Of a stretch of 55,101 bases of DNA, positions 9,698 through 27,300 are shown in pieces. A program made the position numbers and the translations under genes. Position 1 is the stretch's first letter. Every line of letters begins with the position of its first letter. The notes under the pieces are model-generated. The model did no database searches and had not been told where the DNA came from. It saw only the letters and a list, made by a program, of their open reading frames with translations. The DNA comes from a virus (taxonomy: Duplodnaviria; Caudoviricetes), in the IMG/VR virus record IMGVR_UViG_3300031862_000774, positions 1 through 55,101 of that record. The stretch is one strand, 5' to 3'.

Positions 9698-9698
9698 C

Positions 9699-12577: not shown

Positions 12578-12769
12578 ATGACTGAAGAAAAAAAAGCCCA
12601 GCTTGGGCAAGCCGGGCAAGAAGAACGCCTTCTCCGAATGGAGAAGCGAGATCTCATTAATCTCATACTCCAATACGAGAAGCGTGTCAAGAGGCCGGAA
12701 CAGATCTCTTCTTTTATCGAGGATTTCATCTTCAACGCGCAGGCCCAGGCGGGGGAAAGATTCAGATGA
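12578..12769 (+). CDS. Hypothetical protein
   Basis: ATGA overlap with the next gene. Confidence 0.5.
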   Translation: MTEEKKAQLGQAGQEERLLRMEKRDLINLILQYEKRVKRPEQISSFIEDFIFNAQAQAGERFR

Positions 12770-13944
12770 TCGAAAAACTTGGAAGCGATCATTTCCTCAT
12801 CCGGGAGATCGTCGAAAGCTACCTCGAGGACTGGAAGGCCAGGTCCGGCCAGCGGGACCATCAGAAGCGCGGCTACTTCTACATGTCGGACGTGGGCAAG
12901 TGCGACCGGGCGACCTTCTACGACTTCACCTGCCCGGAGAAAAAGCGGCCGATCACGGCTAAGACGCTCATGATGTTCAACGCCGGGAACTTGCTACATG
13001 ATGATATCCAGGCCAGGGCCAGAAAGCGGGGCCTGATCGAGGCGGGGCGCGATATTGAATACGGCCTCGAGGACTGGGCTCACAAGGCGACCGGCCGGCT
13101 GGATTTCATCGCCGCCGTTTACAAGTTCATCGAGATGGAAAAGGGGATTGCCGTCGTCGAGATCAAAACAAAAAATCCCTACAATTTTGGCGATGAGGAG
13201 CCGAGCCAGGACGAAGTCGATCAGGTCCTCTGGTACATCGACCGCCTCAAGGAAAGCTCGGCCAACGGTGTGCGCGAGTCAAATATCCTGGATTACGGTT
13301 TCATCGTCTACATTGACCGCGCGATGATCGCCGATCCCATGCCGATCTGCGGCTGGCGCCTCGATTACGATCCGGAGCGCATTGCCATCATCAAAGCCCG
13401 CTTCACGGCGCTGGATAAGGCCATTGAGTCCGGCGAATGCCCCATGCGGCCCTTCGAACGGGATTCCATCAAATGTACCTACTGCAGATATGAGGCGCAC
13501 TGCTGGGAAGGGATCCCTCGGCCGGAGGCCCCGGCGTTCGTCGCGGATGAAACGATCGAACCGCCCGAGCAGGAGCTGGTCGAGAGCGCGGCGGCCCGCT
13601 ACATCGAGCTCAAAGCGCAGGAAAAGCAAATCGCCGAGGAAGCCGAGCGTCTCCGGGACATCCTCATGCGCTACTTCAAAGCGACGGGCCTTGAGCAGAT
13701 TTCCGTCAACGGCCAAGCCATCATCCACGGCGTCATGAAAAAGTCGACTCTGGATGAGGACTACCTGCTCACGGTGGTTGGCGATAAGTGGCTGCTTATC
13801 GCAAGACCTGACCTTAAACGGATTCAGGCGGCGATCAAGGATGGGATGATCGATGCGGGCGTGCTCGAGCAGGCGAAAATCGTCACCTTTATAGATGTTC
13901 TGCGAGTCAAAGGAGATAAAAATGCCAATTCAAGGATTGAGTGA
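12766..13944 (+). CDS. Cas4-like PD-(D/E)XK nuclease with Fe-S cysteines
   Basis: SDVGKCDR, GNLLHD, GRLD, VEIKT, QVLWY, CTYCRYEAHC. Confidence 0.8.
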   Translation: MIEKLGSDHFLIREIVESYLEDWKARSGQRDHQKRGYFYMSDVGKCDRATFYDFTCPEKKRPITAKTLMMFNAGNLLHDDIQARARKRGLIEAGRDIEYGLEDWAHKATGRLDFIAAVYKFIEMEKGIAVVEIKTKNPYNFGDEEPSQDEVDQVLWYIDRLKESSANGVRESNILDYGFIVYIDRAMIADPMPICGWRLDYDPERIAIIKARFTALDKAIESGECPMRPFERDSIKCTYCRYEAHCWEGIPRPEAPAFVADETIEPPEQELVESAAARYIELKAQEKQIAEEAERLRDILMRYFKATGLEQISVNGQAIIHGVMKKSTLDEDYLLTVVGDKWLLIARPDLKRIQAAIKDGMIDAGVLEQAKIVTFIDVLRVKGDKNANSRIE

Positions 13945-14920
13945 AAAGCGGAGGTTGCCCCGCGCGGGCATCATCCGCCTGGGAATCAAAAAAATCAAGA
14001 CCGTCCAAAAGGGCGGGAAGAATGTTGAGGTCGAATATCCGGCCGAGGTCGACCATTTTGTTTGTCCGGAGATCGTCCAGAAAGTTTATGGCCCTGAGCC
14101 CAAGGCGCTTATCGTCATGTTTCCGGTGGAGAACGAGGAAGTTTTTTTCCAGCAGTGGTACCGGCGTTACGGAAACGGGATCCTTCTCTGCAAGGGTGAC
14201 GGTGCCGAGGCCTTCGCCTGGGATTTCGACAAAGGCGAGATGAAGAAAATCGCTTGCCCTTGCGAATTGCTCAAAAAGGGCGCCTGCAAGGCCGTGGGCG
14301 CCCTGCAGTTTATTCTTCCTGAGGTCGAAGAGGCGGCGGCCGTCTGGCAGATCAACACAAGCTCAAAGAACAGCATCATCGACATTAACAGCGGAATTGA
14401 TTTCATCCGCGGTATCGCCGGCCGGATCGCCATGATCCCGCTCCTGCTCAAACGCGAGCCGCTCGAGATCCACAGAATCGAGGATAAGGAGATGAAGACG
14501 AGCAGCCATTTCACGATGAAGCTATCGCTCGAGGGGACCTCGCTCAAGAAGCTCCAGCTCATGGGGAAGATCAAGCCGACGGAGATCATGCTGCCGGCGC
14601 CTGATGAGAGCCAGCCCGAGGACCTCTTCCCGGAGAACGGATTCAGCCCGGAGGAGGAGGAGAAGAAAAAGGAAAAAGAGAAAAAGGCCTTCGAGCAGGC
14701 CGCGCTCAAGAAGCTCAAGCAGGACCTCGAGTTTTACGTCAAGCAGTACGAGAGCCTGGGCTCCAAGCTCGCGCCGAATTGGCAGAAACGCATCGGCGAG
14801 CTCGCGAAGAAGGAGGAGTTCGAGGCCGCCATCGAAATCTTCAAAACCCGGATCGAGCGGCTGAAAAAAGAGGCGGAGGAGGAGGCTAAATTCGTTGCGG
14901 GAGGCACCGATGCCAAATAA
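13922..14920 (+). CDS. Gp3-like / recombination-associated phage protein
   Basis: RLPRAGIIRLG, LLCKGDG, CPC...CK, LQFILPE, TSSKNS; coupled to nuclease. Confidence 0.6.
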   Translation: MPIQGLSEKRRLPRAGIIRLGIKKIKTVQKGGKNVEVEYPAEVDHFVCPEIVQKVYGPEPKALIVMFPVENEEVFFQQWYRRYGNGILLCKGDGAEAFAWDFDKGEMKKIACPCELLKKGACKAVGALQFILPEVEEAAAVWQINTSSKNSIIDINSGIDFIRGIAGRIAMIPLLLKREPLEIHRIEDKEMKTSSHFTMKLSLEGTSLKKLQLMGKIKPTEIMLPAPDESQPEDLFPENGFSPEEEEKKKEKEKKAFEQAALKKLKQDLEFYVKQYESLGSKLAPNWQKRIGELAKKEEFEAAIEIFKTRIERLKKEAEEEAKFVAGGTDAK

Positions 14921-15578
14921 CCATAATACGGCAATCACCACACTCGAGGAGCGAGCGCTCAGTTTATCGGAAAGGGCCAAGACGATCAAGGTTACGGACA
15001 AAGAGAGCTTCATTGCCGCGAACGAGTTTCGATATGGCATAAGGGATTTACGGATGCAGATTTCGGAAGCCTGGGATCCAGTAATTGACAGCACAAATAA
15101 AGCGCACAGGCAGGCCTTGGAGCAGAAAAAACGGTGCGAGGGGCCACTCATCCAGGCAGACAATATCGTCAAGGCTGAAATGGGTCGCTATATGGCGGAC
15201 GAGGAGCAGGTCCACAGAGAAGCAGAGGAGAAAGCCCGGCGCGCGAGAGAGGAGGCAGAGCGGAAGAGACTCGAGACCCTGAGAGCTGCGGCAGCGGCCG
15301 AGAAGGAAGGAAAATCCGAGGAGACAGACCGGATCCTTGAGCAGATCCCTGAGAAGCCGAAGGCGATTATTCCAGAACCGGTCAAGATCAAGGGAACATT
15401 CCTACGGAGGGATTTGAGATGGCGGGTCGTCGACCTCGCCGCGGTGCCCCGGGATTATCTCTGCGTTGACCGGGCCAAGGTCGAGGAGGTCTTCAGGCGG
15501 CTCGGCAAAGCGATGGCCATTCCCGGGATCGAAACCTACGAAGAGACCACCATCGTTATGAGAGGTCCCGATGCCTGA
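14910..15578 (+). CDS. Conserved coiled-coil phage protein
   Basis: C-terminal WRVVDLAAVPRDYL...IPGIE motif. Confidence 0.6.
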   Translation: MPNNHNTAITTLEERALSLSERAKTIKVTDKESFIAANEFRYGIRDLRMQISEAWDPVIDSTNKAHRQALEQKKRCEGPLIQADNIVKAEMGRYMADEEQVHREAEEKARRAREEAERKRLETLRAAAAAEKEGKSEETDRILEQIPEKPKAIIPEPVKIKGTFLRRDLRWRVVDLAAVPRDYLCVDRAKVEEVFRRLGKAMAIPGIETYEETTIVMRGPDA

Positions 15579-15741
15579 GACCATCATTTACTGCCCCAAA
15601 TGCCGGGACCTCACCAGGCACCGGGTCCGAACCGAGTACGCCGCGGTCTGTTGCGGCTGTGGCGATGAGTGCGACCTCGAGGATCCAAAAGTCATCCAGG
15701 CCATCCTGGAGAAGCGGGGAGACCCGGAGAAGCGAATTTGA
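15571..15741 (+). CDS. Small zinc-finger protein (56 aa, not in ORF track)
   Basis: MPETIIYCPKC...CCGCG; GAGG RBS; overlaps the previous stop. Confidence 0.55.
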   Translation: MPETIIYCPKCRDLTRHRVRTEYAAVCCGCGDECDLEDPKVIQAILEKRGDPEKRI

Positions 15742-15929
15742 GAATCATGGCGGGAGTCCGAGCGAGAGAGCGGAAGAGGCGAGGCGGGACCGTGAGTTTG
15801 ATTTGCCCGACGTCCCAAAACCCCTCCTTTCCCTTGACCTCTTCCCTCCCGCCTTTAGCCCGCCCCTTGACCTGAGCCGGAAAAGGCGCGGCATAATGCC
15901 GTGGCGGGGAGGAAGGAGAGGACATCATA

Positions 15930-16733
15930 ATGGCCGATAAATATACCGGGCGAGAAGATAAAAACCCCTGGACGAAATGGTATTGGGCGGACTTTGAATC
16001 GGACACCGGCCTGAGAGCGTGTAGTTTGGCGGCGCAGGGACTATGGATGAGGATGCTTTCGATTATGGCGAGAAGTAAAAAAAAGGGTTTTCTACTCGAT
16101 GGTGGAAAACAAATGGATAACAAAACCTTAACAAAACTTATAGGTGAAAAGGAGGAGGTAATAATTCTTCTGTTGGCCGAACTCGGCGAACACGATGTCT
16201 ATTCAAAAACCAACGATGGCCTCATATATAACAGGCGTATGGTGATGGAGGGAGAGATTTCAGATAAGCGTTCGATGGCAGGCCAGAAGGGCATGCTTTC
16301 GAGATGGAAAATGAAAAAGAGCCATAACAAAATGATAACAAGGGTTAAGCATGATGTTATAACACGCTCTGCTTCTGCTTCTGCTTCTGCTTCTTCTTCT
16401 CTTAAAAATAAGAATCTTAAAAGAGAGCCCCCAAAGATCATGTTGGTGCTTGATGAAGAGCCAAAAAGATGGGAAGGGATCACTGAAGAGTTAAAAGCTC
16501 TTTGGGCCAAAACATATCCCGGCTGCGATATCGACATCGTCCTCCAGGAGATGATCGCCTACTGGGATGCCCAGCCAAAGGCAAAACGGAAAATAAACTG
16601 GAAGGTGACGATCGTCAATCGGCTTAAATGGCTTCAAGACCATGGTGGAACCCGAGGCAACGTCACTGGCGGAGTCAGGGAATGGTTGGTTAAGGAAAAA
16701 GAAAAAGAGAAGGGAGAGAAGTTGAATGAATAA
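15930..16733 (+). CDS. Phage replication initiator (lambda O / YdaU-like)
   Basis: WTKWYWADF...SLAAQGLWMRML N-domain; internal ATAACA repeats (16324-16364) and (TCTGCT)n tract as likely origin. Confidence 0.75.
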   Translation: MADKYTGREDKNPWTKWYWADFESDTGLRACSLAAQGLWMRMLSIMARSKKKGFLLDGGKQMDNKTLTKLIGEKEEVIILLLAELGEHDVYSKTNDGLIYNRRMVMEGEISDKRSMAGQKGMLSRWKMKKSHNKMITRVKHDVITRSASASASASSSLKNKNLKREPPKIMLVLDEEPKRWEGITEELKALWAKTYPGCDIDIVLQEMIAYWDAQPKAKRKINWKVTIVNRLKWLQDHGGTRGNVTGGVREWLVKEKEKEKGEKLNE

Positions 16734-17418
16734 AGATTTCTATTCTGAACAGATATCCAGGCTTGAAAAAATATTTGGCAGATGTCCAGCACCAGATGAA
16801 TATTTTAATACTCTTCGTAATTTCAGACCCGAGGATTTTATCAAGGCGATCGATAATGTCATCCAAACCCACCGCCCCTACACCGGTCACGTCTTTCCCT
16901 CCCCGTCCGCGATCCTCGACGCCCTCAATGATGTGATGAAGAACCAGACCTGGGCGACGCCCGAGGACTTGGCTGGCGCGGAGTTCTGTGGGCGCTGTGA
17001 GAACCGGGGGATGTATCTGGAAGAGGGCCGGGCGAAGTTCTGTGATTGCATCAAAGGCCGGCGGGCTTGGGCCGTGTTTCGATATTGGCCGAACCGGAAA
17101 AAGATCGCCGAGGAGCAGGCCAAAATCAAAAGCGGCGCACCGCCCCACCATGGCCTCAAGGAACGGAACCCCCTCGGCTTCTGGGAGGACACCCAGGAGG
17201 AGCACGACCGCTGGATGGCAAGGCGACGCGCCGAGCTCCTCGAGTCCCATGCCCGGGCCGACATCAGGGACCGGAAGCTCGCCGAGGCAAAGAAGACCGT
17301 GCCCAGGGAGAGCCTGAGGCGCCTCGTGGAGGAGAAGATCAGCCAGGTCCAGGCGAACAGGCCGCAAGACGAACGGCAGCCGGGCGAGGATGAGGAGGAA
17401 GAGGAGGTCCCATTTTGA
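16726..17418 (+). CDS. Replication-associated protein (helicase-loader-like position)
   Basis: FPSPSAIL, CGRC...CDC; follows the initiator. Confidence 0.5.
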   Translation: MNKDFYSEQISRLEKIFGRCPAPDEYFNTLRNFRPEDFIKAIDNVIQTHRPYTGHVFPSPSAILDALNDVMKNQTWATPEDLAGAEFCGRCENRGMYLEEGRAKFCDCIKGRRAWAVFRYWPNRKKIAEEQAKIKSGAPPHHGLKERNPLGFWEDTQEEHDRWMARRRAELLESHARADIRDRKLAEAKKTVPRESLRRLVEEKISQVQANRPQDERQPGEDEEEEEVPF

Positions 17419-17720
17419 GAAAAGACATCGCCCTGAAGCTCAAGGCGGAGGCCGAGCGCGTGGCCAGGGAGTTCTCAAACCCCTTCCGGGACCGAAATCC
17501 GGGCGGTGAGATCTTCGAGCTTGAGGGCATCCAGGCTCTATCCGAATTCACGGCCGCAGTCATCTTCAAGAAAAACACGGACAAGCGCGCGGTTGCCTTT
17601 TTCTATTACGTCAAGGATCAGTGGCGATATTTCTTCCCTTCGGATTCGCACATCCTCGGGATGGAGTCATTCCCGGAGGTGAAGAAGCGGGTCGAAATAG
17701 AGAATTTTTCGAGGAACTGA
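17415..17720 (+). CDS. Hypothetical protein
   Basis: GAGG RBS, overlaps both neighbours. Confidence 0.55.
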   Translation: MRKDIALKLKAEAERVAREFSNPFRDRNPGGEIFELEGIQALSEFTAAVIFKKNTDKRAVAFFYYVKDQWRYFFPSDSHILGMESFPEVKKRVEIENFSRN

Positions 17721-18178
17721 TGACATCTTTTTTGGCCAGGCCGTCCAAAGGCGACCATTCGCCCGGGGCAATCCGGCTATGCCTATTTATATCTTGCGCC
17801 GTTCTCGCTGTCATTATCCTCCTCGGCTCGCAGACCTACGTCTCAAAATTCAATCTTTTTAAGATCGCTTTTAAGGATCCCACCGAGTCGATCCTCATCC
17901 AATTCAGGAACGGGGATATCTACATTTACAGCACGCTGGATATAGGAGGGGTGACGGCCGACCCCGCCCGCATGCTTGACACCTTGACCAGGATAGAAGG
18001 GAAAAAGATATCGGACATCATCCAGATCACGCACAACCATTTTAGCGGCCGAACCTTCAACGAGACAGACAACGGGTTTCTCCGGTATTTCAAGGCCCAC
18101 GGTTTTACGGGGGATTTCAACATCTATCACACGGAATCGGAAACAACCGAAACAAAAAAGGAAAAAGGAGATAAATGA
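17720..18178 (+). CDS. Membrane-anchored JAB/RadC-like domain protein
   Basis: N-terminal hydrophobic helix; E...THNHFSG..FNETD resembles JAB HxH-x10-D. Confidence 0.45.
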   Translation: MTSFLARPSKGDHSPGAIRLCLFISCAVLAVIILLGSQTYVSKFNLFKIAFKDPTESILIQFRNGDIYIYSTLDIGGVTADPARMLDTLTRIEGKKISDIIQITHNHFSGRTFNETDNGFLRYFKAHGFTGDFNIYHTESETTETKKEKGDK

Positions 18179-19845
18179 TGAAGCAAAATTATCGGGAGAT
18201 CCTGCTGGCCGACCTGGCGGGAAACCCCAGGAATCCGAGGAAGCAGTTCACCGGGCCGAAGTTCGACGAACTCACGGCGTCGGTCAAGGAGAAGGGCGTC
18301 ATCGAGCCGATCATCGTCAGGCCTAAGAAGTTCAAGAACACGAGCTTCGAGATCGTCGCCGGCGAGAGGCGCTACCACGCGGCGAGCCTGGCGGGGCTAA
18401 AGACGATCCCCGCAGTCATCCGGGAGCTCACCGATGAGCAGGCCTTCGACTTCATGCTGATCGAGAACCTGCAGCGCGAGGACCTGACGGAGTTCGAGGA
18501 GGCCGAGAGCTTCAAGGCCTACGTCGGGAAGCATGGCGAGGATGGGATCCCGGGCCTCGCGGAGAAGACGGGGATATCGCCGCAGTACATCCGCCGGCGG
18601 ATGGCTGTGCTGGCGCTCCCTGGGCAAGCACTCGAGGCTTGGAGGAAAGGCCGGCTCCGGTACGGGCACCTCGAGCAGCTCCTCCGGGTGAAGGCCTCGC
18701 CGAATTTCAAGGAGTTTTTCAGGCTGGCCATGGAGCAGGACCGGTGGGACGGCCAGACCACTGTCGAGGAGCTGAAGAGAAGGATCGACAATGAATCGCC
18801 GGCGCTCAGCCTGGCCTATTTCCCAATCACGCCGGAAGGCTGCGAGGCCTGCCCGAAGAACACGATGGTCCAGCGGGGCCTCTTCGGGATCGACGACGCG
18901 CAGAAGTCGCGCTGCCTCGACCCGGGCTGCTTCAAGAAGAAGCAGAACGACTGGCTCCTCGGACATTGGGATGAGAGCCCGCTTCGCAAAAAGTACGGGA
19001 CGACCGGGTTCAAGTTCAAAAACAAGATCGGCTATAACGACCACGAGAGCGTCAAGTCCTCTTTCCGGCCGGACGAGAAGTGCAAGGCCTGCCCCCATTT
19101 CCTGACGGTCATTGAGGATAGCGGAGAGGTTTCGACCTACGACGAGCAGGAGTGCTTTAACAAGGCCTGCCTGCGATCGCGGACAGCGAAGATGCGGGGG
19201 GATATCTCGGAGAGAGAAAAACAGGAGAGGAAGCCGGGCGACGTCCGGGTCTCCTGGCACGGCGAATATTTCCGTGACCTCTTTTTCGAGAAGCGACTGC
19301 CGGCGCGCCTCGCCTGTTTCGGTCCGACGTCGCAAGAAATGATAACCCTTCTTTTCGTGGCCGCGCTCCATGGCAATTCGGTCGCCCGGGATGCGATCTG
19401 GGAAGCGCTTAAGGTCAAATTCCGCGAGCGCTGGAATGAGGAGCGCCTATTCGGACGGATCCTGGCACTTCCCCATGCCGAGATCGACAAGCTCATCCCC
19501 AAAGCGGTCAAGGCGGTCGTCATGGATGGGCAGCACGTCGGCGATTACAGCGGCTTCGGGACGACGAACCGGTTCGCCGCGGCCAAGTTCCTGGGGATCG
19601 ATGTCGAGAAGGAGTGGGCCATGACCGAGGAGTACCTGCAGAAGAAGACCAAGGCGGAGATCATGGCAATCGGGAAGAAGCTCAAGATCTTCGCCGACGC
19701 GAAGGCCAAGGCATATCTCGCGAAAAACCTCAAGGGCAGGGAGCCGGGGAAGCTGAAGAAGGGCGAGCTCGTGGACCTGGTCCTCAAGTCGGGCGTGGAG
19801 CTCGTCGGCAAGGTGCCGGACGAGATCCTGAAGGCAACGAGGTGA
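18175..19845 (+). CDS. ParB/RepB/Spo0J-family protein
   Basis: NPRKQF, GVIEPIIVR, IVAGERRYHAA, ENLQREDL. Confidence 0.9.
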   Translation: MMKQNYREILLADLAGNPRNPRKQFTGPKFDELTASVKEKGVIEPIIVRPKKFKNTSFEIVAGERRYHAASLAGLKTIPAVIRELTDEQAFDFMLIENLQREDLTEFEEAESFKAYVGKHGEDGIPGLAEKTGISPQYIRRRMAVLALPGQALEAWRKGRLRYGHLEQLLRVKASPNFKEFFRLAMEQDRWDGQTTVEELKRRIDNESPALSLAYFPITPEGCEACPKNTMVQRGLFGIDDAQKSRCLDPGCFKKKQNDWLLGHWDESPLRKKYGTTGFKFKNKIGYNDHESVKSSFRPDEKCKACPHFLTVIEDSGEVSTYDEQECFNKACLRSRTAKMRGDISEREKQERKPGDVRVSWHGEYFRDLFFEKRLPARLACFGPTSQEMITLLFVAALHGNSVARDAIWEALKVKFRERWNEERLFGRILALPHAEIDKLIPKAVKAVVMDGQHVGDYSGFGTTNRFAAAKFLGIDVEKEWAMTEEYLQKKTKAEIMAIGKKLKIFADAKAKAYLAKNLKGREPGKLKKGELVDLVLKSGVELVGKVPDEILKATR

Positions 19846-19909
19846 TATGGTCACAAAACTAATCCGGGAACGCTATGGCCGGCGCCTCCTGGATGGAGGA
19901 GATAAAAAC

Positions 19910-20230
19910 ATGACCAAGAAAAACGATTTGAAGGAAGAGGTGAAAAAGGATCTGGAAGAGGCGGGCTTTCTGGCGACAGGGAAAAAGGAACCGGCGCAGA
20001 AGCCGCTCTTCGGCGACATGGATTTGGTCATCAACACGCTCGAAACGGAAGCGACGGAAATCAAGAAGCAGATCGAGAAGGCCCAGGATTCAATCGACCG
20101 GAGGAAGGAGGAGATCTCCGATCTCGGGGAGAGGCTGGACAATATCGAGACTTCGCTGGCCAAGCTCCGGGCGAAAGCGAAGGAGGTCGAGGCCCCGGCG
20201 GAAGAAAAGGAAGGGGAGCCGCCGTTCTGA
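19910..20230 (+). CDS. Coiled-coil hypothetical protein
   Basis: GGAG RBS; acidic C-terminus ending PPF. Confidence 0.6.
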   Translation: MTKKNDLKEEVKKDLEEAGFLATGKKEPAQKPLFGDMDLVINTLETEATEIKKQIEKAQDSIDRRKEEISDLGERLDNIETSLAKLRAKAKEVEAPAEEKEGEPPF

Positions 20231-20652
20231 TGATCACACTGACAGTCCCGGGTGAGCCCATGGGGAAGGGCCGGCCGCGCTGGGCGAAGTGGGGAATTTA
20301 TACACCCAAGAAGACCGTGAACTACGAGACGCAGATCCGGGAGCGCTTCTCGGCCGAGTACCCGGGGTTCGAACCGCTTACCTCTGCCATTCGCCTTGAG
20401 CTTTCCGCCTACCTGGGGATCCCCTGTTCGGAGAGTAAGCGGAAGCAGGCGCTCATGGAGGCCGGCGCGATCCGGCCGAAGAAAAGGCCGGATCTGGACA
20501 ATATCGAGAAGGTTGTCCTGGATGCTCTCCAGAGCATCGCCTTCCGGAACGACAGCCAGGTCTGCGCAGTCGACAAGATGAAGTGGTACTCACGGACGCC
20601 ACGGCTCGAGATTCGGATTCTGGAGATCAAAGAGGAAGGAGGCAAAGAATGA
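20230..20652 (+). CDS. rusA: RusA-family Holliday junction resolvase
   Basis: GKGRPR, KRPDLDNIEKVVLDAL, NDSQV. Confidence 0.92.
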   Translation: MITLTVPGEPMGKGRPRWAKWGIYTPKKTVNYETQIRERFSAEYPGFEPLTSAIRLELSAYLGIPCSESKRKQALMEAGAIRPKKRPDLDNIEKVVLDALQSIAFRNDSQVCAVDKMKWYSRTPRLEIRILEIKEEGGKE

Positions 20653-20840
20653 TAAGAGCATATCGAATTAGAATCGTTGAGATCAGAAAAAGGATCAACG
20701 ACATTATTGATGCAGAGCTCGCCACGCTGGACAATGAAGAACTGAGACAAGTCAAAGAGAACAACGGCAGCAAACGAATTGCGGTGCCGGAAGGAACAAA
20801 AGAAATCATGGATGCCGAAGCCGAAAAGAAGGCAGAATGA
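20649..20840 (+). CDS. Hypothetical protein
   Basis: GGAGG RBS and ATGA overlaps on both sides. Confidence 0.55.
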   Translation: MIRAYRIRIVEIRKRINDIIDAELATLDNEELRQVKENNGSKRIAVPEGTKEIMDAEAEKKAE

Positions 20841-21028
20841 CCGATCGTCGTGCTGGTAAAGTTTTCCTCGCTCACTGGGATGAATGGGTTGAGCTGTGCA
20901 GGGAGCAAAATGAAGACCCGAGATAGGTGGACGAGCTAACTTTTGGAATAGGTGGAGGAAATTACTTTACTGTGAGGCCGAATTGCGATCCGCCGGAGGA
21001 GGCCGCCGATGAGGAGAAAGATGAGTGA
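20837..21028 (+). pseudogene. Small gene interrupted by in-frame TAG (20924-20926)
   Basis: Frame continues past TAG and ends in the repeat-encoded tail EEAADEEKDE, like the intact neighbours. Confidence 0.55.
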
Positions 21029-21203
21029 GACAGAACGATATGAACGGAGGCAAACCTTCGTTGCTCGCCGTAGAGCGATAGGGAAGGAATGGCATAGGTT
21101 ACATCCTGAAGGCATCAACGCATCGAACCTTGTGGATTTCAAGGTATTTATGAAGCGTCGGGAAAAAGAGGCCGCCGGTGAGAAAGCGAAAAACCGAGGT
21201 TAA
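21021..21203 (+). CDS. Array gene, hypothetical
   Basis: Start in extended repeat (could also start at 21009). Confidence 0.6.
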   Translation: MSETERYERRQTFVARRRAIGKEWHRLHPEGINASNLVDFKVFMKRREKEAAGEKAKNRG

Positions 21204-21432
21204 AATATTCGCTGTTTCGCCATTCGCTCAAAAAAAAGAGGTTGACCTATATTGTTTTGGCTCGTGCGGGAAAATAATCGTTGGAGCAATTACTATCTGT
21301 GGTGGCACGTTTTTTCCATGCAAAGAAGATATTTGCCCTCATGAAGAAAAACGTACTCCTGAGCCTATCGGGAGAATCGAATCACAATTTGTATACGTGA
21401 GGAAATTAAGGCAGGCTGCCGATGAGCATTGA
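21178..21432 (+). CDS. Array gene, Cys-rich hypothetical
   Basis: GTG start inside repeat; ends QAADEH. Confidence 0.6.
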   Translation: MRKRKTEVKIFAVSPFAQKKEVDLYCFGSCGKIIVGAITICGGTFFPCKEDICPHEEKRTPEPIGRIESQFVYVRKLRQAADEH

Positions 21433-21646
21433 ATTTGAGCGAGGAGACCTACCTGAGCTTGGTCGCATGGAAATGACCTGTGATTTTCCTGATTGCAAAG
21501 TCACCGACTATTTTGATGGTGATTTTCGAGAATGCGTCAGCCAGGCTAAGGAACATGGATGGCATATTTTCAAGGCGAGTCCCGATGAATGGGAACACTA
21601 TTGTCCTGAACATGCAAAGGAGGCCGCCGATAAGGAGGAAAGATGA
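21422..21646 (+). CDS. Array gene, zinc-finger protein
   Basis: CDFPDC...GW...HYCPEH. Confidence 0.7.
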   Translation: MSIEFERGDLPELGRMEMTCDFPDCKVTDYFDGDFRECVSQAKEHGWHIFKASPDEWEHYCPEHAKEAADKEER

Positions 21647-21837
21647 TAAAACTTGAAGACCTTTTACCGTGTCCCTTTTGCGGAGGAAAAGAAGTGGAAG
21701 AGGGAACCAGCGAAGATGGAGTAGATTTGGTTGTAATATGTCATGACTGCGGGGCTTGTGGCCCGCCTGCCGACAGCATCGCAGGGGCAAGGGAGGAATG
21801 GAATAAGCGAGGGGGGAAGGAGGCCGCCGATGAATAA
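21643..21837 (+). CDS. lar: Lar-family restriction alleviation protein
   Basis: LLPCPFCGG...VICHDCGACGP...AREEWNKR. Confidence 0.8.
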   Translation: MIKLEDLLPCPFCGGKEVEEGTSEDGVDLVVICHDCGACGPPADSIAGAREEWNKRGGKEAADE

Positions 21838-22042
21838 AGCAAAGAAAAAAGAAATGCCATTATGTTCTTGTGGGTTTCCGCAGAGTTTTCCCATACCACA
21901 TGAACATGATAGAACAGAACGGGAAAAACAGATAATTAATTACTATGAACGTCGAGATGCCATGTTCAGACATGTGGATGCTGTCCAGGAATTTCTTCGT
22001 GCGAAGAAAGAGAAGGAGGCCACCGATGAGGAGGAAAGATGA
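21830..22042 (+). CDS. Array gene, hypothetical with CSC...HEH motif
   Basis: ATG inside repeat; ends EATDEEER. Confidence 0.65.
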   Translation: MNKAKKKEMPLCSCGFPQSFPIPHEHDRTEREKQIINYYERRDAMFRHVDAVQEFLRAKKEKEATDEEER

Positions 22043-22329
22043 GTGAGGTAAGTAAAGAGAAAAAGCTACGTTGGCTGGCCTTGAAAAGAACTGCGGTTTA
22101 TATGGATTCGACATATCAAAGCACTGGAACATTGTCAGATTTAGCCAAGGTAGAATTGGAGACAATTGATGCCATCCGCCGTCTCATCGAGAAGGTGGGA
22201 GAATGGCAAGAAAAAGCAAAAAAGCATCTTGAGAAATTGGATGATGAACCATTGGCGATGGATGTATTAGATGCCTTGGATTTGCTTGGCGAAATCCGTG
22301 ATTTTGGAAAGGAGGCCGCCCATGAGTAA
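22039..22329 (+). CDS. Array gene, helical hypothetical
   Basis: Bounded by repeats. Confidence 0.65.
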   Translation: MSEVSKEKKLRWLALKRTAVYMDSTYQSTGTLSDLAKVELETIDAIRRLIEKVGEWQEKAKKHLEKLDDEPLAMDVLDALDLLGEIRDFGKEAAHE

Positions 22330-22486
22330 GCAAATCCAATGCCCAAATTGTAATGGAGAAGGAAAATTTATGGAGGCAGATAGATTCGCTGATGAGTATG
22401 GAGAGAGGTGTATTATTTATATCCAATGTGAGCGTTGTCATGGGGATGGGTGGATTGAGGGAAGTAGAAAAGGAGGCCGCCGATGA
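22322..22486 (+). CDS. Array gene, DnaJ-type zinc finger
   Basis: CPNCNGEG...CERCHGDG. Confidence 0.7.
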   Translation: MSKQIQCPNCNGEGKFMEADRFADEYGERCIIYIQCERCHGDGWIEGSRKGGRR

Positions 22487-22668
22487 GTAAACCTGAATTT
22501 TGGTGGTGTATCAAAGCGGAGAATAAACTTCAGGCATTTACTGCTTCCCTTAATAAATTTGTACCCGTTTCTATTTGGCTTAAATATCTTAACCGCGAGA
22601 AATTACGAGTGGATGAATCCGTCGTTCGCATCTGCGTCAAGGAAGCACATAAAGGAGGCCGCCGATGA
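22483..22668 (+). CDS. Array gene, hypothetical
   Basis: Bounded by repeats; ends KGGRR. Confidence 0.6.
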   Translation: MSKPEFWWCIKAENKLQAFTASLNKFVPVSIWLKYLNREKLRVDESVVRICVKEAHKGGRR

Positions 22669-22844
22669 GGAAGCTGAGTGAAAGGGAGATACCGAAAATC
22701 CTGGATGAATTGATAGCCATTAAGAGGTTATTAATTCTGGAATTGCTGACATCTGGCATTAAGGCTAAAGATATCGCAGGGATGATTGGGGGAAAGACAA
22801 AAGAAATAGAACAGATTTTTAAATCCAAAGGAGGCCGCCGATGA
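22665..22844 (+). CDS. Array gene, HTH-like 59-aa protein (not in ORF track)
   Basis: MRKLSE...SGIKAKDIAGMIGG...KGGRR; bounded by repeats. Confidence 0.65.
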   Translation: MRKLSEREIPKILDELIAIKRLLILELLTSGIKAKDIAGMIGGKTKEIEQIFKSKGGRR

Positions 22845-23125
22845 GTGAATTCAAATTTAGATTAGATAAAGAACAACTCGAATCTGAATTAAATGGTGTG
22901 GCCACAGGATACCCCCCATCCAAAGAATGGGTAAATCATATCCGCTGCCTCATCGAGAACATGGACAAGAAGGTGAACAGGGAATTTGTGCAAAGATATG
23001 AAGGACTAATAAAAGAAGCATGGAGTATGGATTGGCCGATTTTGAAAGTAAACGAAATAAAAAGAATTTTAGATATGATGCTTGCCGAACTCGGCCATGA
23101 GGTCGAGGAGGAGGAGGAAAAATGA
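22841..23125 (+). CDS. Array gene, hypothetical, partly similar to 22039-22329
   Basis: IRCLIENM vs IRRLIEKV; ATG inside repeat. Confidence 0.65.
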   Translation: MSEFKFRLDKEQLESELNGVATGYPPSKEWVNHIRCLIENMDKKVNREFVQRYEGLIKEAWSMDWPILKVNEIKRILDMMLAELGHEVEEEEEK

Positions 23126-23448
23126 GTGAGCCGTTGAAAGAGGAATGGCCGATATGTCCCTGTAAAGAAACCATTGATGTTCTGGTGCATATCGACGCTG
23201 ACCTCACTTGTGAAAGAAATGAAAAATGGAAGGTAGTTAAAATTGACCGCTGTATTGCTTCTATAGTGAAAGCACTCCAAGATGGGAGAATAAACATGAG
23301 GGGTTCTTGTTGCGGGCATGGCAGGACAATCGGAGAGATAGAATTGAGTGATGGTAGAAAATTGCTGATTTATCCTACGGCAAATCAGTGGATGAATGAA
23401 GGGAGGGACTATTCACATACTCTGGAAAAGGTGAAGGAGGAAAAATGA
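23122..23448 (+). CDS. Hypothetical protein with IDRCIA...GSCCGHG motif
   Basis: Motif seen; ATGA overlaps on both sides. Confidence 0.65.
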   Translation: MSEPLKEEWPICPCKETIDVLVHIDADLTCERNEKWKVVKIDRCIASIVKALQDGRINMRGSCCGHGRTIGEIELSDGRKLLIYPTANQWMNEGRDYSHTLEKVKEEK

Positions 23449-24584
23449 ATAAGTGCGAAATCTTCGCAGGATGGCCTGGGGCCATAGGACGGCCTGGACC
23501 TTTGGAGTCTGGCCTTGACACGTGGTGTCGGGCTGGCGTGACGGGAGCCAGGGCATTCTTCTGGCACATCTTTAGGCCCCGATTCCCATACAGGGTCGTG
23601 AGGTGGGAAAACGACCGCAAGGATAAGAAGCGTTCCATTCCGATTTTCGCAGATGAGTGGGACGAGACATTCTTTGCGGAGGCGGAGGTTATTGTCAAGG
23701 CTATGGCGAAACGTAACATGACCCTCATAGCGACCATACTGGATGGCAAGTCGATTCGCTACGGGGAAGGGAAGGTGGAAGACCCTTGGAGGACTAACTG
23801 GAAATGGTGGGAAAAGTTATGGCCGGGCCACGGATTTTGTACCGAGGGCATGAATCCCCACACTCTGAAATGGCTTGACAAAATCATCCCGTTTCTGGAC
23901 AGCACGGGCATCAACTACCTCGTTGAAACCATCAATGAGTTTTATGTTCCGAACGAAAAAGACCCTCGCTTTGCCTGGCATCAATGGTTGGTGGATGAGC
24001 TGGGGAAAAGAGGTGTCGGGAAAGAACGCATTGTCACCTGCGCCCGACCGGCCTGGAGAGCCATTGCAGAGCAGGGGCATTATTACTCGCCCCATTGGAT
24101 TGTCACTTTACAACAATGGGATGCCATGGAAGCGGCTCTCGGAAATTTTCCAAGAGACAGAGTTATCCCAAGCGGTGATGGAGGACGAGACGGCAACGCC
24201 CCCAAGGGAGAATTCGGTAGGGGCCTCGGGGTCGAAGATGCCAAAAGATTTGCCAAGACAATGATTGAATGGGGTTATCCTATCTACGAGTATTGGGATC
24301 AAACAAGCAATGAATGGGAGCATAGTTATTTGGCCCCGGCAAAGGCGATGAGGATAATTTTCGAAGCGACCACCCCCGAGCCGCCTGCTCCGCCTATCCC
24401 CGTGCCTGAGCCGGTCCCGGGGCCCGCCCCGACTCCGCAACCGGAGCCGGGATCTAAAAAGGAGGAAAAAATGAATATCTTTCAATGGGCTTTTGGCAAG
24501 AATTCCTTTTGGCAGAAGAACCCGCTTTGGGCGAGGTTCCTTATGGGTTTCGTCCTGGGTTTCATTCTCGGTTTGATACTCTGA
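23445..24584 (+). CDS. Glycoside-hydrolase-like (TIM barrel) protein with Pro-rich linker and C-terminal TM helix
   Basis: Trp-rich; ETINE resembles the clan GH-A acid/base NE; YYSPH; PEPPAPP linker; hydrophobic tail. Confidence 0.5.
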   Translation: MNKCEIFAGWPGAIGRPGPLESGLDTWCRAGVTGARAFFWHIFRPRFPYRVVRWENDRKDKKRSIPIFADEWDETFFAEAEVIVKAMAKRNMTLIATILDGKSIRYGEGKVEDPWRTNWKWWEKLWPGHGFCTEGMNPHTLKWLDKIIPFLDSTGINYLVETINEFYVPNEKDPRFAWHQWLVDELGKRGVGKERIVTCARPAWRAIAEQGHYYSPHWIVTLQQWDAMEAALGNFPRDRVIPSGDGGRDGNAPKGEFGRGLGVEDAKRFAKTMIEWGYPIYEYWDQTSNEWEHSYLAPAKAMRIIFEATTPEPPAPPIPVPEPVPGPAPTPQPEPGSKKEEKMNIFQWAFGKNSFWQKNPLWARFLMGFVLGFILGLIL

Positions 24585-24769
24585 TGAGTGGGTCATTGAA
24601 CGAGGGAATTATCGAATTGATCGTGCTCGTGGTCTTACTGGCGATCATCGGCATACTGGCGCTGGCGATGAAGATGCGACGCGATGATAGGCGCAGACGG
24701 GAGGAGGAGACCCTCCGGCGAATTCTCAAACATCGTTACGGTGGTAAGGAGAAGGGCGATGGGGAATAA
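24584..24769 (+). CDS. Small single-TM protein
   Basis: Hydrophobic helix then basic tail. Confidence 0.55.
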   Translation: MSGSLNEGIIELIVLVVLLAIIGILALAMKMRRDDRRRREEETLRRILKHRYGGKEKGDGE

Positions 24770-24983
24770 CCGGACGGTCCATTCCTGGCAGGCGTTTCTG
24801 ATCTTCATGGTCTGCCTCATGGTCGGGTTCTTTTGGACATCCTATAAACCGGCGGCTCCGTTCGGGACGCTATTGACGGGCCTGCTTGGAGGTTTCGGCG
24901 GTTACCTCACAAAACGCATCGTCCAGAAGATGGAGAAATTCGGAGGCGCCGGCGGTAACAGCGAGAAAGGAGGAGAGATATGA
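24759..24983 (+). CDS. Holin-like 2-TM protein
   Basis: Two hydrophobic segments, charged C-terminus. Confidence 0.5.
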   Translation: MGNNRTVHSWQAFLIFMVCLMVGFFWTSYKPAAPFGTLLTGLLGGFGGYLTKRIVQKMEKFGGAGGNSEKGGEI

Positions 24984-25669
24984 AGAGCCAGACTAAGGTC
25001 ACGATCGCCCTGGCGGTCGTTCTCATCATCGTGATCACCATCGGCGGCTATGAGTGGGGCCGGTCGCACCAAGCGGCCAAGGATTGGAAGGCGCGCGAGG
25101 CGATCTATAACGAGCGGATCGCGGACAAGGATGTAACACTGGCAGCCCGGGTCGATGAACTCACGGCCATCAAGGGCGAGCTCGCGCAGGTCTCGGCCGA
25201 CATTGTCGTCCTCAAGGCCGACAGCGCCAAGGACAAGGCCCGCCTCGCCGACCGCGAGAAGCAGCTCCGCGATCTTCCGCCCGAGCACCTGGTGACGGAA
25301 GCGCGGGAGCTGCTCAATACCGACGGGATCACGCTCTCGGCCGATGGTGAGCACGTCATGTTCACGGTGTCCGCCTTCACCGAGGCGGTGGTCCGGATTG
25401 CCCGGGAGCGCCAGCTCACGTTCGAGTATGTCCCCAAGCTCGAGGCGACGATTAAGAAGCAGGACCTCAAGATCGAGAAGCTCGAGGCCGGCATGGCGAA
25501 CCTCGAGGGGCAGGTCCTGACCTGGGGCGAGAAGTACCAGATCCTCAAGGACGAGTTCGCCGATTTCAAGAGGGTCAAAGAGCGCTCGTGGTTCGCCCGC
25601 GCCATGGATACCGGCGGCAAGGTCGCCCTCGGCATCGTGGCCGGATTTGTCTTGGCGGCTGTGAGATGA
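24980..25669 (+). CDS. Spanin-like coiled-coil membrane protein
   Basis: N-terminal TM, long coiled coil, C-terminal hydrophobic helix. Confidence 0.5.
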   Translation: MKSQTKVTIALAVVLIIVITIGGYEWGRSHQAAKDWKAREAIYNERIADKDVTLAARVDELTAIKGELAQVSADIVVLKADSAKDKARLADREKQLRDLPPEHLVTEARELLNTDGITLSADGEHVMFTVSAFTEAVVRIARERQLTFEYVPKLEATIKKQDLKIEKLEAGMANLEGQVLTWGEKYQILKDEFADFKRVKERSWFARAMDTGGKVALGIVAGFVLAAVR

Positions 25670-25863
25670 AGGCCTGGCTCGGGGCGATCCTCTGCCGGCT
25701 CGGGCTGCACAGCAGGGAGCGGTTCGTCTACGAGAACGCGGAGCTGCCCGGGCTGCGCTGGCACGTGGAGAGGTGCTGGCGCTGCGGCGTGGTGTTTGTG
25801 TTCGAGGTGAGGCCGGCGGACCATCCGAATTGCCCGAGTGCGATCGTGGAGGAGGTGAACTGA
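25666..25863 (+). CDS. Small Cys/His phage protein
   Basis: LCRLGLH...CWRCG. Confidence 0.55.
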   Translation: MKAWLGAILCRLGLHSRERFVYENAELPGLRWHVERCWRCGVVFVFEVRPADHPNCPSAIVEEVN

Positions 25864-26117
25864 TGAAGCCGATCTCATTTAAGGAGCAAAATTCTGTGCT
25901 ACTGCCGCCGCCGGACATGACCGACCATGAATGCGGCCCGCTGCCGATTTATCGGGATGGGAAAACGATCATTAGTTGTTGGCAGATGAGTTGGGGCGAA
26001 AGGCTGGCGGCGCTTCTGTTCGGCAAGGTCTGGGTCGGCGTGCTCAGTATGATGTCGCAGCCGCCGATATGGCTGGCTTGCTGGAAGTCTGCATTCAAAA
26101 AGGGAGCGGGCACATGA
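25863..26117 (+). CDS. Conserved-looking phage hypothetical protein
   Basis: MKPISF...CGPLPI...ISCW...QPP; GGAGG RBS. Confidence 0.6.
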   Translation: MKPISFKEQNSVLLPPPDMTDHECGPLPIYRDGKTIISCWQMSWGERLAALLFGKVWVGVLSMMSQPPIWLACWKSAFKKGAGT

Positions 26118-26395
26118 CGCTCGAAGAAATTAAGTGCGAGGTGATAGAGGAAATTCATCGGGCCCAGGAAAAATTTCCATGGTGGCCCAAGGACGTGGTA
26201 CATGCCGCGGCGATCGTGGCTGAAGAGGCGGGCGAACTGCAGAAGGCGGCACTCCAGTTTTATTATCAGAACGGAGGGAGAGGGGCCATCCGGAAGGAGG
26301 CATTACAGACGGCGTCAATGGTTTATCGGCTACTTTTTCATATCGAACAGTATTGGCCCGAAGAACCCGGAGAGTCCGGGAAATTCGAAGAATAA
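26114..26395 (+). CDS. MazG-like NTP pyrophosphohydrolase fold protein
   Basis: IVAEEAGEL...KEALQTA. Confidence 0.55.
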   Translation: MTLEEIKCEVIEEIHRAQEKFPWWPKDVVHAAAIVAEEAGELQKAALQFYYQNGGRGAIRKEALQTASMVYRLLFHIEQYWPEEPGESGKFEE

Positions 26396-26412
26396 CGAAG
26401 GAGGTAAAAAAA

Positions 26413-26643
26413 ATGGTTATTTGCCGATTTTATGTTTGTGAAAAAGCCGAGATTCTTCATTGGGAAGGTGGAACGGCTTTCCGCGTTACTCTTGCACCTG
26501 CAAAGAGCGAGCCATTCGGAAGTGCTACTCCGTCAGGTAAGATCGAGATGCTTATCGTGCCGAAGGATGCGGGAGAAGAATTCCAAGTCGGGAAGTTCTA
26601 TCTTGTCAAATTTGAACTTGACCCCGACCAATCGGATAAATAA
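26413..26643 (+). CDS. Conserved-looking phage hypothetical protein
   Basis: ATPSGKIEM...FQVGKFYLVKF; GGAGG RBS. Confidence 0.65.
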   Translation: MVICRFYVCEKAEILHWEGGTAFRVTLAPAKSEPFGSATPSGKIEMLIVPKDAGEEFQVGKFYLVKFELDPDQSDK

Positions 26644-26646
26644 AGA

Positions 26647-27300
26647 ATGAGAAACAGGGCGGAGTTTCCCGACCACCGGCTACGGTCCGGGGATAGGTCC
26701 ATCGATGTCGAGTCATCAGGGAAATGTCCGCCCTGCCGTCTCCTCCGCGAGATGAGGCTCAAGGCAGGGCTGAGCCAACCGGAATTGGCGAGACGGAGCG
26801 GCGTCTATTATCTCACTATCTCCAATATCGAGACAGGGAAAGGCAAACCAAAGGCGCTGACTTGGGCGCGCCTCATGCGGGCATTATCCGAAATGATGCC
26901 CGAGAAAGAGGAAATACGGAAGGAACAACCGTCTGACCAGCCGGCACCTGAAAAAGAGGAAACCCGCGAAGAGAGAATTCAAGAAAGCCGACCGGAATTC
27001 TTCTCCATCGGCGGCTACATGAGCCGGGAGGAATTCTTCCACTTTCTCAGATCGAAGATGAGCCAGGCACTTGGTGCATTTTTCAACGGACCGCTTCTAT
27101 CCACACTTATCTCGAATGCCGAGTTTTTTTCGCGCCGCCGATACTATCCGGGCGACTTCGCGACGGCGGTTGAGATTTTGGGTGAGTTGCTGAGGGCGCA
27201 GAGGCGGATGTTCTCGGCTGGACTCGCGAAAGATAATGACGATGGCGATGAACCCGGGCAGAAGCAACAACGCAGGCCATATCATCGTCGATTGGGATGA
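26647..27300 (+). CDS. XRE HTH regulator with C-terminal extension
   Basis: LREMRLKAGLSQPELARRSGV...ISNIETGK; start uncertain. Confidence 0.7.
   Translation: MRNRAEFPDHRLRSGDRSIDVESSGKCPPCRLLREMRLKAGLSQPELARRSGVYYLTISNIETGKGKPKALTWARLMRALSEMMPEKEEIRKEQPSDQPAPEKEETREERIQESRPEFFSIGGYMSREEFFHFLRSKMSQALGAFFNGPLLSTLISNAEFFSRRRYYPGDFATAVEILGELLRAQRRMFSAGLAKDNDDGDEPGQKQQRRPYHRRLG

Follow-up and report, generated by a model that had tools for sequence, protein, structure and literature searches.

The repeat array

The window, by which we mean the whole stretch of DNA analysed here, is the 55,101-nt record IMGVR_UViG_3300031862_000774 of an uncultured tailed phage (Duplodnaviria, Caudoviricetes), classed in IMG/VR as a provirus. 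Between its RusA gene and its late genes lies a run of small genes on the plus strand, delimited by copies of the 15-nt direct repeat GGAGGCCGCCGATGA, and this array is the subject of the present analysis. With 0–2 mismatches allowed, GGAGGCCGCCGATGA has 11 matches in the window, all on the plus strand, against 0.31 expected, and none of 100 shuffled sequences reaches 11. Ten copies fall within 1.85 kb (20998–22844), with starts at 20998, 21167, 21411, 21619, 21819, 22015, 22311, 22472, 22654 and 22830, that is, at spacings of 169, 244, 208, 200, 196, 296, 161, 182 and 176 nt. The copies of the array are found only between RusA and the late genes. The eleventh match, a stray with two mismatches, is at 50003. 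No match at up to two mismatches was found on the reverse strand of the window, and the backwards control also gave none. Each copy starts one plus-strand open reading frame (ORF) of 54–96 amino acids, and the GC content of the cassette interiors is 0.43, compared with 0.55 in the window. An earlier note on this DNA, made from the letters alone, had listed the same ten positions and had described a single small, AT-richer ORF per interval of 161–296 bp. The motif scan and the ORF list bear it out on both points, and also on the confinement of the motif to this locus, since 10 of the 11 copies lie in the array.

A copy reads AAGGAGG, six bases (CCGCCG in the standard form), ATG (once GTG) and then A. 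The TGA formed in this way ends the upstream gene in one frame, and the other upstream frame is closed by GAT GAG TRA or by a stop a few codons downstream. The conserved unit exceeds 15 nt and is roughly AAAGGAGGCCGCCGATGAGTRA. The Shine–Dalgarno (SD) core stands 6 nt ahead of the ATG or GTG in nine of the ten copies, always in the same orientation. In the copy at 21619, ATA stands in place of ATG; the one at 21167 has a GTG start and AGAGG, and GCAGG is found in the one at 21411. Counted from the first base of the next start, the end of the upstream stop is 3 to 25 nt away, on the downstream side. The earlier note held every junction to be translationally coupled; the overlap of stop and start is indeed seen, and coupling is what this overlap suggests. 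The translations confirm that unrelated proteins share tails encoded by the repeat, namely KGGRR (three times), KEAADE, KEAAHE, KEATDEEER and KEAADKEER, each directly followed by the stop.

Behind the copies at 20998, 21619 and 22015, at a distance of 12 nt, comes a further junction of an A-rich type, GGAG(G)AAAGATGA. The three extensions with a second ribosome-binding site (RBS) and ATG that had been noticed before are thus real (21013–21024, 21634–21646 and 22030–22042), but at 21619 the second start replaces the first rather than adding to it: because the first one reads ATA, only the second is usable. In its general form, (A)GGAGGAAARATGA(GTGAG), this second standard junction occurs five times, the further two copies being at 23110–23125 and 23434–23448, so that three of the five are placed 12 nt behind a CCGCCG-type copy. 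The composite junctions may have remained as scars where cassettes were emptied, or they may be double starts.

The genes of the array

All features in this section are on the plus strand. Numbers with L denote the other contigs compared with the window; X2–X4 are three other runs labelled sediment metagenome, read as assembled contigs, and X1 is the source run. No RNA run was listed among the sequencing runs containing this DNA.

The array is preceded by a conserved small gene of 63 codons (20837–21028), whose last codons read repeat copy 1 (…PPEEAADEEKDE and the stop). It is 85% identical to L083 over 20843–21012, with the ratio of nonsynonymous to synonymous polymorphism (pN/pS) of 0.18. 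The gene contains an in-frame TAG at 20924–20926, where L083 reads GAG; all X2–X4 contigs covering this place read G at 20924. Either the TAG is a nonsense mutation in this provirus, or translation restarts at the GTG that follows it at 20927.

Repeat copy 1, GGAGGCCGCCGATGA (20998–21012), is followed by the A-rich junction GGAGAAAGATGA at 21013–21024. It opens cassette 1 (21009–21203), which encodes 64 amino acids from 21009 or 60 from the in-frame ATG at 21021 and has no family match; its homologue in L090 is 83% identical (pN/pS 0.26). Copy 2, AGAGGCCGCCGGTGA (21167–21181), provides a GTG start for cassette 2 (21178–21432), a Cys-rich protein of 84 amino acids, also with no family match. 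Copy 3, GCAGGCTGCCGATGA (21411–21425), opens cassette 3 (21422–21646; 74 amino acids), a match to phrog_926 (E 2.9e-7), for which no function is assigned.

Copy 4, GGAGGCCGCCGATAA, which has lost the start codon, occupies 21619–21646 together with the second junction GGAGGAAAGATGA. The usable ATG at 21643 begins cassette 4 (21643–21837), whose product of 64 amino acids is a Lar-like restriction-alleviation zinc-ribbon protein (PF14354, E 4.7e-12, 46.4 bits at a cut-off of 28.6; phrog_599). Copy 5 (21819–21833) is exact, and cassette 5 (21830–22042; 70 amino acids) has a homologue of 83% identity in L129 that starts at the motif (pN/pS 0.20).

Copy 6, GGAGGCCACCGATGA, is again combined with GGAGGAAAGATGA (22015–22042). 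The ATG at 22039 begins cassette 6 (22039–22329; 96 amino acids), which belongs to a multi-copy family of small proteins, denoted c0 and recognisable by DAIRRLIE…IRDFGKE. Copy 7, GGAGGCCGCCCATGA (22311–22325), precedes cassette 7 (22322–22486; 54 amino acids), a CxxC zinc ribbon with a counterpart in L132 that extends from motif to motif at 81% identity. The remaining copies 8, 9 and 10 are exact (22472–22486, 22654–22668 and 22830–22844). They open, respectively, cassette 8 (22483–22668; 61 amino acids, MSKPEFWW…, family c1), cassette 9 (22665–22844; 59 amino acids, no family match) and cassette 10 (22841–23125; 94 amino acids). The latter has the IRxLIE box in common with cassette 6 and, judged by reading the sequences, may belong to c0 as a distant relative.

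The run of CCGCCG-type junctions ends at GGAGGAGGAAAAATGA (23110–23125), a junction of the A-rich type. Behind it are two more genes of the same operon (108 and 379 amino acids; 23122–24584), joined by AAGGAGGAAAAATGA at 23434–23448 and with no family match. In the array itself, Pfam and PHROG yielded no match for six of the ten cassettes. The cassettes are real genes, since pN/pS is 0.18–0.26 for the three pieces in common with L083, L090 and L129, as given above, and cassette 4 is Lar-like.

The same junction in other phages

Exact-word scans with the motif gave at least 116 stretches in viral contigs for a 16-mer and 20 for an 18-mer, and 61 stretches in metagenome contigs for a 19-mer. At 25 loci, at least two copies stand within 800 nt on one strand. 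Three of these (L014, L038 and L071), with two loose copies each, were judged by eye to be chance and dropped, and six near-duplicates (L035, L149, L154, L184, L185 and L061) were removed from the counts. The final set consists of 16 non-redundant uncultured loci and the window, that is, 17 loci with 63 copies.

In the 16 further contigs the motif forms single, one-strand clusters of small genes, and these genes are mostly unrelated. In five whole records (39–60 kb, three of them classed complete) all copies, respectively 7, 4, 5, 2 and 2, are in one cluster on one strand. The motif is unchanged at backbone GC contents ranging from 0.42 to 0.62 across the 17 loci, and the cassettes are AT-richer than the rest in 13 of 17. 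The comparison of six whole motif-bearing records by blastp revealed no protein family common to all; the only two families reaching three of the six are a terminase and a tail protein.

Region 20800–23500 has no blastn match among cultured phages, and a search for the host with the portal protein produced no match; the host is probably not an actinobacterium. In genome contigs, the 18-mer was found in at least 120 stretches; among the matches listed, three have two copies within 800 nt and none has three. The two-copy case of L230 looks like chance on inspection. L194, a contig of a metagenome-assembled genome (MAG) labelled Geminicoccaceae, has two junction-like copies at 2543 and 2706 (oriented), 163 nt apart, and could represent a small array belonging to a named lineage; its proteins showed no similarity to those of the other arrays. 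In L152, the genes behind the two exact motif copies at 1605 and 2327 (oriented) have their first 12 codons in common (MSQTQTNAAPDR); the junction is duplicated here together with a 36-nt gene start.

Conservation of the spacer and reading frames

The motif is not simply the RBS context of this genome. The other gene starts of the window have A/G-rich spacers, and the sole other CCGCCG-like spacer, GCCGCC, belongs to a doubtful ORF at 38149, so none of the other credible starts has the CCGCCG spacer. The 63 GGAGG-N6-ATGA sites of the 17 loci form two spacer classes. The numbers of sites with 0 to 6 changes from CCGCCG are 27, 13, 4, 4, 5, 8 and 2, the zero-change class being inflated by up to 16, as the loci other than the window were recruited via an exact copy. 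Thus, the spacer differs from CCGCCG by one change at most in 40 of the 63 sites and by 4–6 changes in 15, and the conservation of this spacer, pointed out in the earlier note for the window, extends across unrelated cassettes and GC levels. CCGCCG is unable to pair with the universal 3' end of 16S rRNA, which may differ from that of the host.

Over the 63 copies, the upstream ORF runs through the motif in frame b in 39 cases and in frame a in 21, the other three being artefacts of the longest-frame rule. In cassette 7 the tail is KGGRR in the window and KEAADE in the L132 homologue. The reading in two frames and the two tails on one gene indicate that the unit is conserved as nucleic acid and not as a tail peptide.

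Such a pattern could arise if the motif were a shared translational-control or RNA-processing site, where a trans-acting protein or small RNA of the host or the phage recognises the SD, the spacer and the start and switches the accessory genes jointly, with recombination being incidental. Repression by RegA and cleavage at GGAG by RegB in phage T4 are comparable cases. The spacer is conserved well past the needs of the SD in unrelated phages, in unrelated cassettes and at different GC contents, the junction type is uniform within an array, and the copy at 21619 retains 14 of the 15 bases despite the loss of its start codon, all of which fits control in trans. Moreover, in the available text of PMC3203893 and PMC12699233 this very function has been proposed, but not shown, for the start-associated sequences (SAS) of phages. 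On the other hand, no candidate factor reading the motif emerged by blastp among the six records, which have no protein family in common, although blastp alone makes this a weak test. No antisense copy is seen: the 11-nt core has just three one-mismatch matches in antisense orientation in the window, all within coding regions, and Rfam assigned no family to 19000–25000 (one sub-threshold snoRNA match, E 0.27, is irrelevant). Neither is the motif tied to gene families, nor were array-specific variants, which would hint at co-evolution with a phage factor, found overall: the mean differences are 1.57 within and 1.59 between arrays (p 0.45), in a test biased by the fact that the copies were picked by likeness to one consensus. 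L121 alone has a variant of its own, GGAGGCCGACGATGA, in three of five copies, and a fourth copy shares that base. We consider control in trans unlikely but not negligible.

Junction type in the c0 family

Proteins of the c0 family are about 90 amino acids long, carry no Pfam or atlas name and occur in up to three copies per array; members were seen in the window (22039–22329), L084, L090, L041, L103, L067 and L083. In DNA, the central box of these genes is 85–97% identical between paralogues that have diverged elsewhere, and the box also forms a mosaic boundary. The search for homologues of cassette 6 returned only itself and one weak match, and the protein atlas had solely unnamed viral clusters for it, all with scores under 0.9. 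The profile search of the 50%-identity library with c0 yielded 91 representatives (E ≤ 0.001). Their tails are such as the CCGCCG junction would encode in 20 cases and K/E/G-rich, such as the A-rich junction would encode, in 38, and 47 of the 91 begin with MSE or MSK.

On the tree of 84 c0 members with tails removed, the 19 carriers of the CCGCCG type need at least 13 state changes, compared with 17.2 ± 1.2 in shuffles, 2 of 1,000 being as low; the tree is a quick one, built on short proteins. Hence, on this tree, the junction type is only loosely inherited with the gene. Yet in the window 12 junctions in a row include 10 of the CCGCCG type, compared with 20 of 91 in the c0 family at large; at this background of 0.22, and if independence is assumed, the chance probability is about 1e-5. 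Uniform junctions combined with shuffled contents are predicted by homology-dependent capture, and a phage-specific reader of the motif predicts the same.

Genomic setting

The early operon upstream of the array (12766–20652, plus strand) encodes a Cas4-like PD-(D/E)XK exonuclease and Gp3-like, exonuclease-like, replisome-organiser-like and ParB-like (18175–19845) proteins, as well as RusA (20230–20652). Further upstream, an integrase is encoded on the opposite strand; downstream of the array are terminase, portal and other late genes. In 17000–27000 promoter-like sites are not in excess (6 against 5.5 expected) and none is at a junction; the same holds for terminator-like sites in the region (17 against 11.5 ± 3.7). 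Since there is no excess of promoters or terminators and no Rfam family, the array seems to be the small-gene tail of one early operon. Its location presumably resembles that of the lambda nin region, where small overlapping genes extend from replication genes to late genes next to RusA. Farther along the window, one ORF of 1,036 amino acids (38376–41486) combines an ATP-dependent DNA ligase domain (residues 330–505) with a C-terminal XkdF-type S78 protease domain (926–1034), an unusual pairing adjoining the portal gene.

Ten direct repeats near a ParB-like gene might be DNA-binding sites, iterons or centromere-like, for the ParB-like or a replication protein encoded upstream. However, the motif is non-palindromic and keeps a fixed register with a start codon throughout, the spacing being 150–300 nt. 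The closest relatives of the ParB-like protein, in L125 (76% identity), L126 (66%) and L129 (68%), are accompanied by 0, 1 and 1 copies, respectively, the last being a single loose copy on a MAG contig labelled Eubacteriales, and the other array-bearing records have no homologue of this protein. A role as binding sites is therefore very improbable. L125, which lacks the motif, uses AAGGAGGTGACGCATGA twice (2408–2430 and 2627–2649, 219 nt apart), a different junction with an extended match to the anti-SD.

The earlier note suggested an integron-like array. There are two tyrosine recombinase genes close together in the left part of the record (6987–8135, plus strand, and 8609–9751, minus strand), and one of them might cut and join at the repeat. 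As in integrons, the cassettes are promoterless, bounded by repeats and in one orientation (all on the plus strand), and would be expressed from upstream. But the two recombinases score only 43.7 and 57.2 bits with the IntI profile TIGR02249, far below the cut-off of 265, and are encoded 11–14 kb upstream of the array, beside the presumed prophage end and the lysogeny region; nor do the array-bearing records have a common recombinase family. Of the 15 inverted-repeat pairs in 20500–23600, none is recurrent at the junctions, whereas attC sites are imperfect inverted repeats of about 60–140 nt. In place of IntI, attC and attI, the array has a shared direct repeat of 15–22 nt, in register with start and stop codons, which a mere recombination site would not need; its expression would rely on translational coupling and not on a Pc promoter alone, and any recombination would be based on homology. 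Hence the integron-like mechanism is not borne out: the array is not an integron, and we give site-specific recombination at the repeat hardly any chance.

A standardised junction and the exchange of cassettes

The reading we prefer, with a probability of roughly 0.55, is that the small genes of the array are joined by one standardised junction, AAAGGAGG-CCGCCG-ATGA(GTRA), serving translational coupling and acting as a cis signal of the SAS kind, and that the array is a nin-like region of accessory genes in the genome of an uncultured, temperate tailed phage, between the replication and recombination genes and the late genes. The repeat is real and local, and in its form it is functional. The junction contains a strong SD, a fixed 6-nt spacer, the start of the next gene and stops for two of the three upstream frames; since it holds these stops, genes can abut or overlap without intergenic space. 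A ribosome finishing one gene would be held by the SD and would restart on the next one, so that an ORF inserted at any place between two junctions would share in the expression of a single long operon. It is the recurrence of the junction around unrelated genes in unrelated phages that argues for a cis signal of the start-associated kind.

The second part of the reading, to which we give about even odds, is that the shared 15–22 nt double as a homology patch for the exchange, deletion and insertion of cassettes by general or phage-encoded recombination. The Cas4-like, Gp3-like and RusA proteins of the phage, suggested in the earlier note, might conceivably take part. Such a role would explain the uniform junction type beside the shuffled gene content. 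RusA reportedly prefers cutting 5' of CC; speculatively, a GC-rich patch in AT-rich cassettes might be an attractive point for resolution by RusA.

Gene order differs between relatives, in line with the shuffling proposed earlier: in L090 a member of the cassette-8 family is followed by an unrelated gene, a member of the cassette-1 family and c0 paralogues, whereas in the window cassette 1 is the first and cassette 8 is late. Homology to L083 covers the small gene ahead of the array and breaks off with the final base of repeat 1. In L129, homology to cassette 5 sets in at the motif, and its distance from the ParB-like gene is about 360 nt there, compared with about 2 kb in the window. The 1,084-nt contig L143 is a mosaic, in which a 189-nt stretch starting at AAGGAGG is 99.5% identical to L084, and another one of 160 nt, ending at ATGA, is 99.4% identical to L041. 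Thus, across the loci cassettes are gained, lost, reordered and shared at more than 99% identity, with boundaries at motif edges.

The contigs of X2–X4 contain many pieces, 85–99% alike, each covering single cassettes. X2 and X3 contigs join 21009 to 21179, so that cassette 1 is absent from repeat to repeat; judging by the record coordinates, this joint would leave no room for extra letters. A contig of one run joins 21016 to 22651. Loose contig ends are found at repeats, at 21004, 21817, 22011, 22468/9, 22652 and 22849.

We counted the ends of homology segments of at least 80 nt between non-redundant loci that fall in the zone from −17 to +6 of the start codon. Of 56 unique ends, 18 are in this zone, compared with 3.35 expected and a maximum of 11 in 5,000 random trials.

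Several observations weigh against the proposed reading, mainly against its recombination part. Because the motif is also a gene boundary, a control with ORF stops was run: ends within 12 nt of an ORF stop number 15 of 56 inside the arrays (5.1 under the null) and 13 of 45 outside them (2.3). With clustering equally present at gene ends having no motif, the counts cannot by themselves demonstrate a causal role of the motif in exchange. Clean gene-boundary mosaics are general in these phages, and the boundaries at motif edges may just reflect selection for intact genes. So of the earlier claim that recombination at the repeats adds, deletes and shuffles genes, the boundaries of gain, loss and replacement at the repeat stand, and a special role of the repeat in producing them does not follow. 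The repeat-to-repeat deletions that the note proposed to seek in reads do appear as joints in the X2 and X3 contigs, but the joints of X2–X4 stem from diverged relatives (85–95% identity) and not from one population, and the contigs of the source run X1, from which assembly drops rare variants, contain none.

Individual boundaries also deviate. The remaining two boundaries of L143 are in short boxes common to paralogues. A tiny cassette shared by L083, L041 and L143 (96–99%) has the motif upstream in L083 only, whereas its RBS is of another sequence in L041 and L143. L041 and L103 differ by 1.35 kb, and at the borders of this indel the ends of two paralogues are identical over 19 nt, within a conserved coding box. 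A phmmer comparison (E ≤ 0.01) of 15 cassette proteins of six distant arrays with 35 cassettes of the window group gave no matches and thus no sign of spread by recombination among these arrays. As to the spacer, folding of the ten junctions as RNA gave no common hairpin: the GC-rich spacer is often paired, with a different partner each time. CCGCCG is not required for expression, since the A-rich type serves the same c0 family more often, and nothing in the analysis explains why the spacer should be CCGCCG.

The junctions might also be a passive by-product, copied from one ancestral junction by tandem duplication and hitch-hiking and retained because mutations would endanger the overlapping SD, start and stop, with no special role of the spacer or of recombination. 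Paralogues do exist in the arrays (up to three c0 copies, the box shared by cassettes 6 and 10, and the junction repeated with 36 nt in L152), the three overlapping signals constrain many positions, and breakpoints at gene ends are, as said, general in these phages. This does not account for the facts that most cassettes of the window are unrelated to one another, that the spacer is kept although its bases have no coding constraint common to both frames, that the same 15-mer occurs in phages of 42–62% GC with no other detectable similarity, or that the junction type changed at least 13 times within one gene family. We think such an origin somewhat less probable still than control in trans.

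Comparison with known systems

Start-associated sequences are known as GGGATAGGAGCCC in Cluster K mycobacteriophages (PMC3203893), and a SAS-like GGGAAAGGACCCC is known in Cluster EF Microbacterium phages (PMC7302621). As described in the available text of these papers and of PMC12699233, they are asymmetric repeats of 13 nt that include the SD core, occupy the place of the RBS in a subset of non-structural genes and have one orientation; they are conserved beyond the pairing with rRNA, stand before different gene families and sometimes overlap the upstream stop, their function being still untested. The repeat of the array is likewise short, asymmetric, SD-containing, in one orientation and limited to a subset of non-structural genes. 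It differs in sequence, and its unit extends over the spacer and the start codon and contains stops for two frames, leaving no intergenic gaps. Further, its copies are contiguous, whereas those of SAS are scattered over half a genome, and the phages that carry it otherwise resemble one another little or not at all. Inverted repeats of the extended SAS (ESAS) type were not found upstream of the array copies. With the different sequence and no such inverted repeats, the array repeat is SAS-like in kind but not a member of those motif families. Of the known kinds of signal, SAS, named as a loose precedent in the earlier note together with lambdoid boundary sequences, are the closest, although the published consensus is not matched. 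The array repeat adds a new case, different in sequence and layout, to a class of phage signals that is known but still lacks an explanation.

In T4-type phages, promoter(early)–stem-loop elements (PeSLs) are repeated between small non-essential ORFs of a hyperplastic region, and insertions, deletions and replacements end in the motif, according to the accessible part of PMC2839356. There, as proposed here, an expression signal doubles as a recombination site. However, PeSLs are units of a promoter and a terminator, act on transcription and are about ten times longer, whereas the signal of the array is translational; neither a sigma-70 early promoter nor a stem-loop terminator was found at the array junctions, and there is no consistent hairpin. 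Mini-circles have been shown for PeSLs. In the array, ends of homology are seen at the motif, but gene ends free of the motif are equally enriched, and the parallel with PeSLs in this point may be only apparent.

The boundary, or linker, sequences of lambdoid phages are short, conserved sequences at gene boundaries, proposed to be sites of homologous recombination that create mosaics; most of the mosaic boundaries of known phages lack them, as stated in the available part of PMC3029335. The array resembles them in that one and the same short sequence recurs where different modules meet, in more than one phage, and homology ends there. Unlike boundary sequences, one sequence marks most of the consecutive junctions of the array and recurs across unrelated phages.

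Implications

Going further, one may tentatively regard the array as a recombinase-free phage counterpart of an integron, built on the adaptor AAAGGAGGCCGCCGATGAGTRA; this is possible, though we would not bet on it. The adaptor would end any upstream gene in two frames and set translation going again on the gene behind it; it would also provide the homology for the capture, loss or transfer of single ORFs between otherwise unrelated phages. Cassettes keeping the adaptor would spread and those losing it would be stranded, so that selection would act at the level of the cassette pool and not of the single phage. The composite junctions at 20998, 21619 and 22015 would then be scars of emptied cassettes.

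These observations bear on how mosaic phage genomes swap single genes cleanly, a problem for which the idea of linker or boundary sequences has few clear examples, and on the purpose of start-associated sequences, a question unanswered since 2011. The array is an unusually clean case, as one junction marks 10 of 12 consecutive boundaries, serves two frames, does not depend on base composition and is found in phages sharing little or nothing else, with near-identical cassettes in different neighbourhoods. If the proposed role is true, the adaptor would be a ready-made part for the construction of polycistronic arrays.

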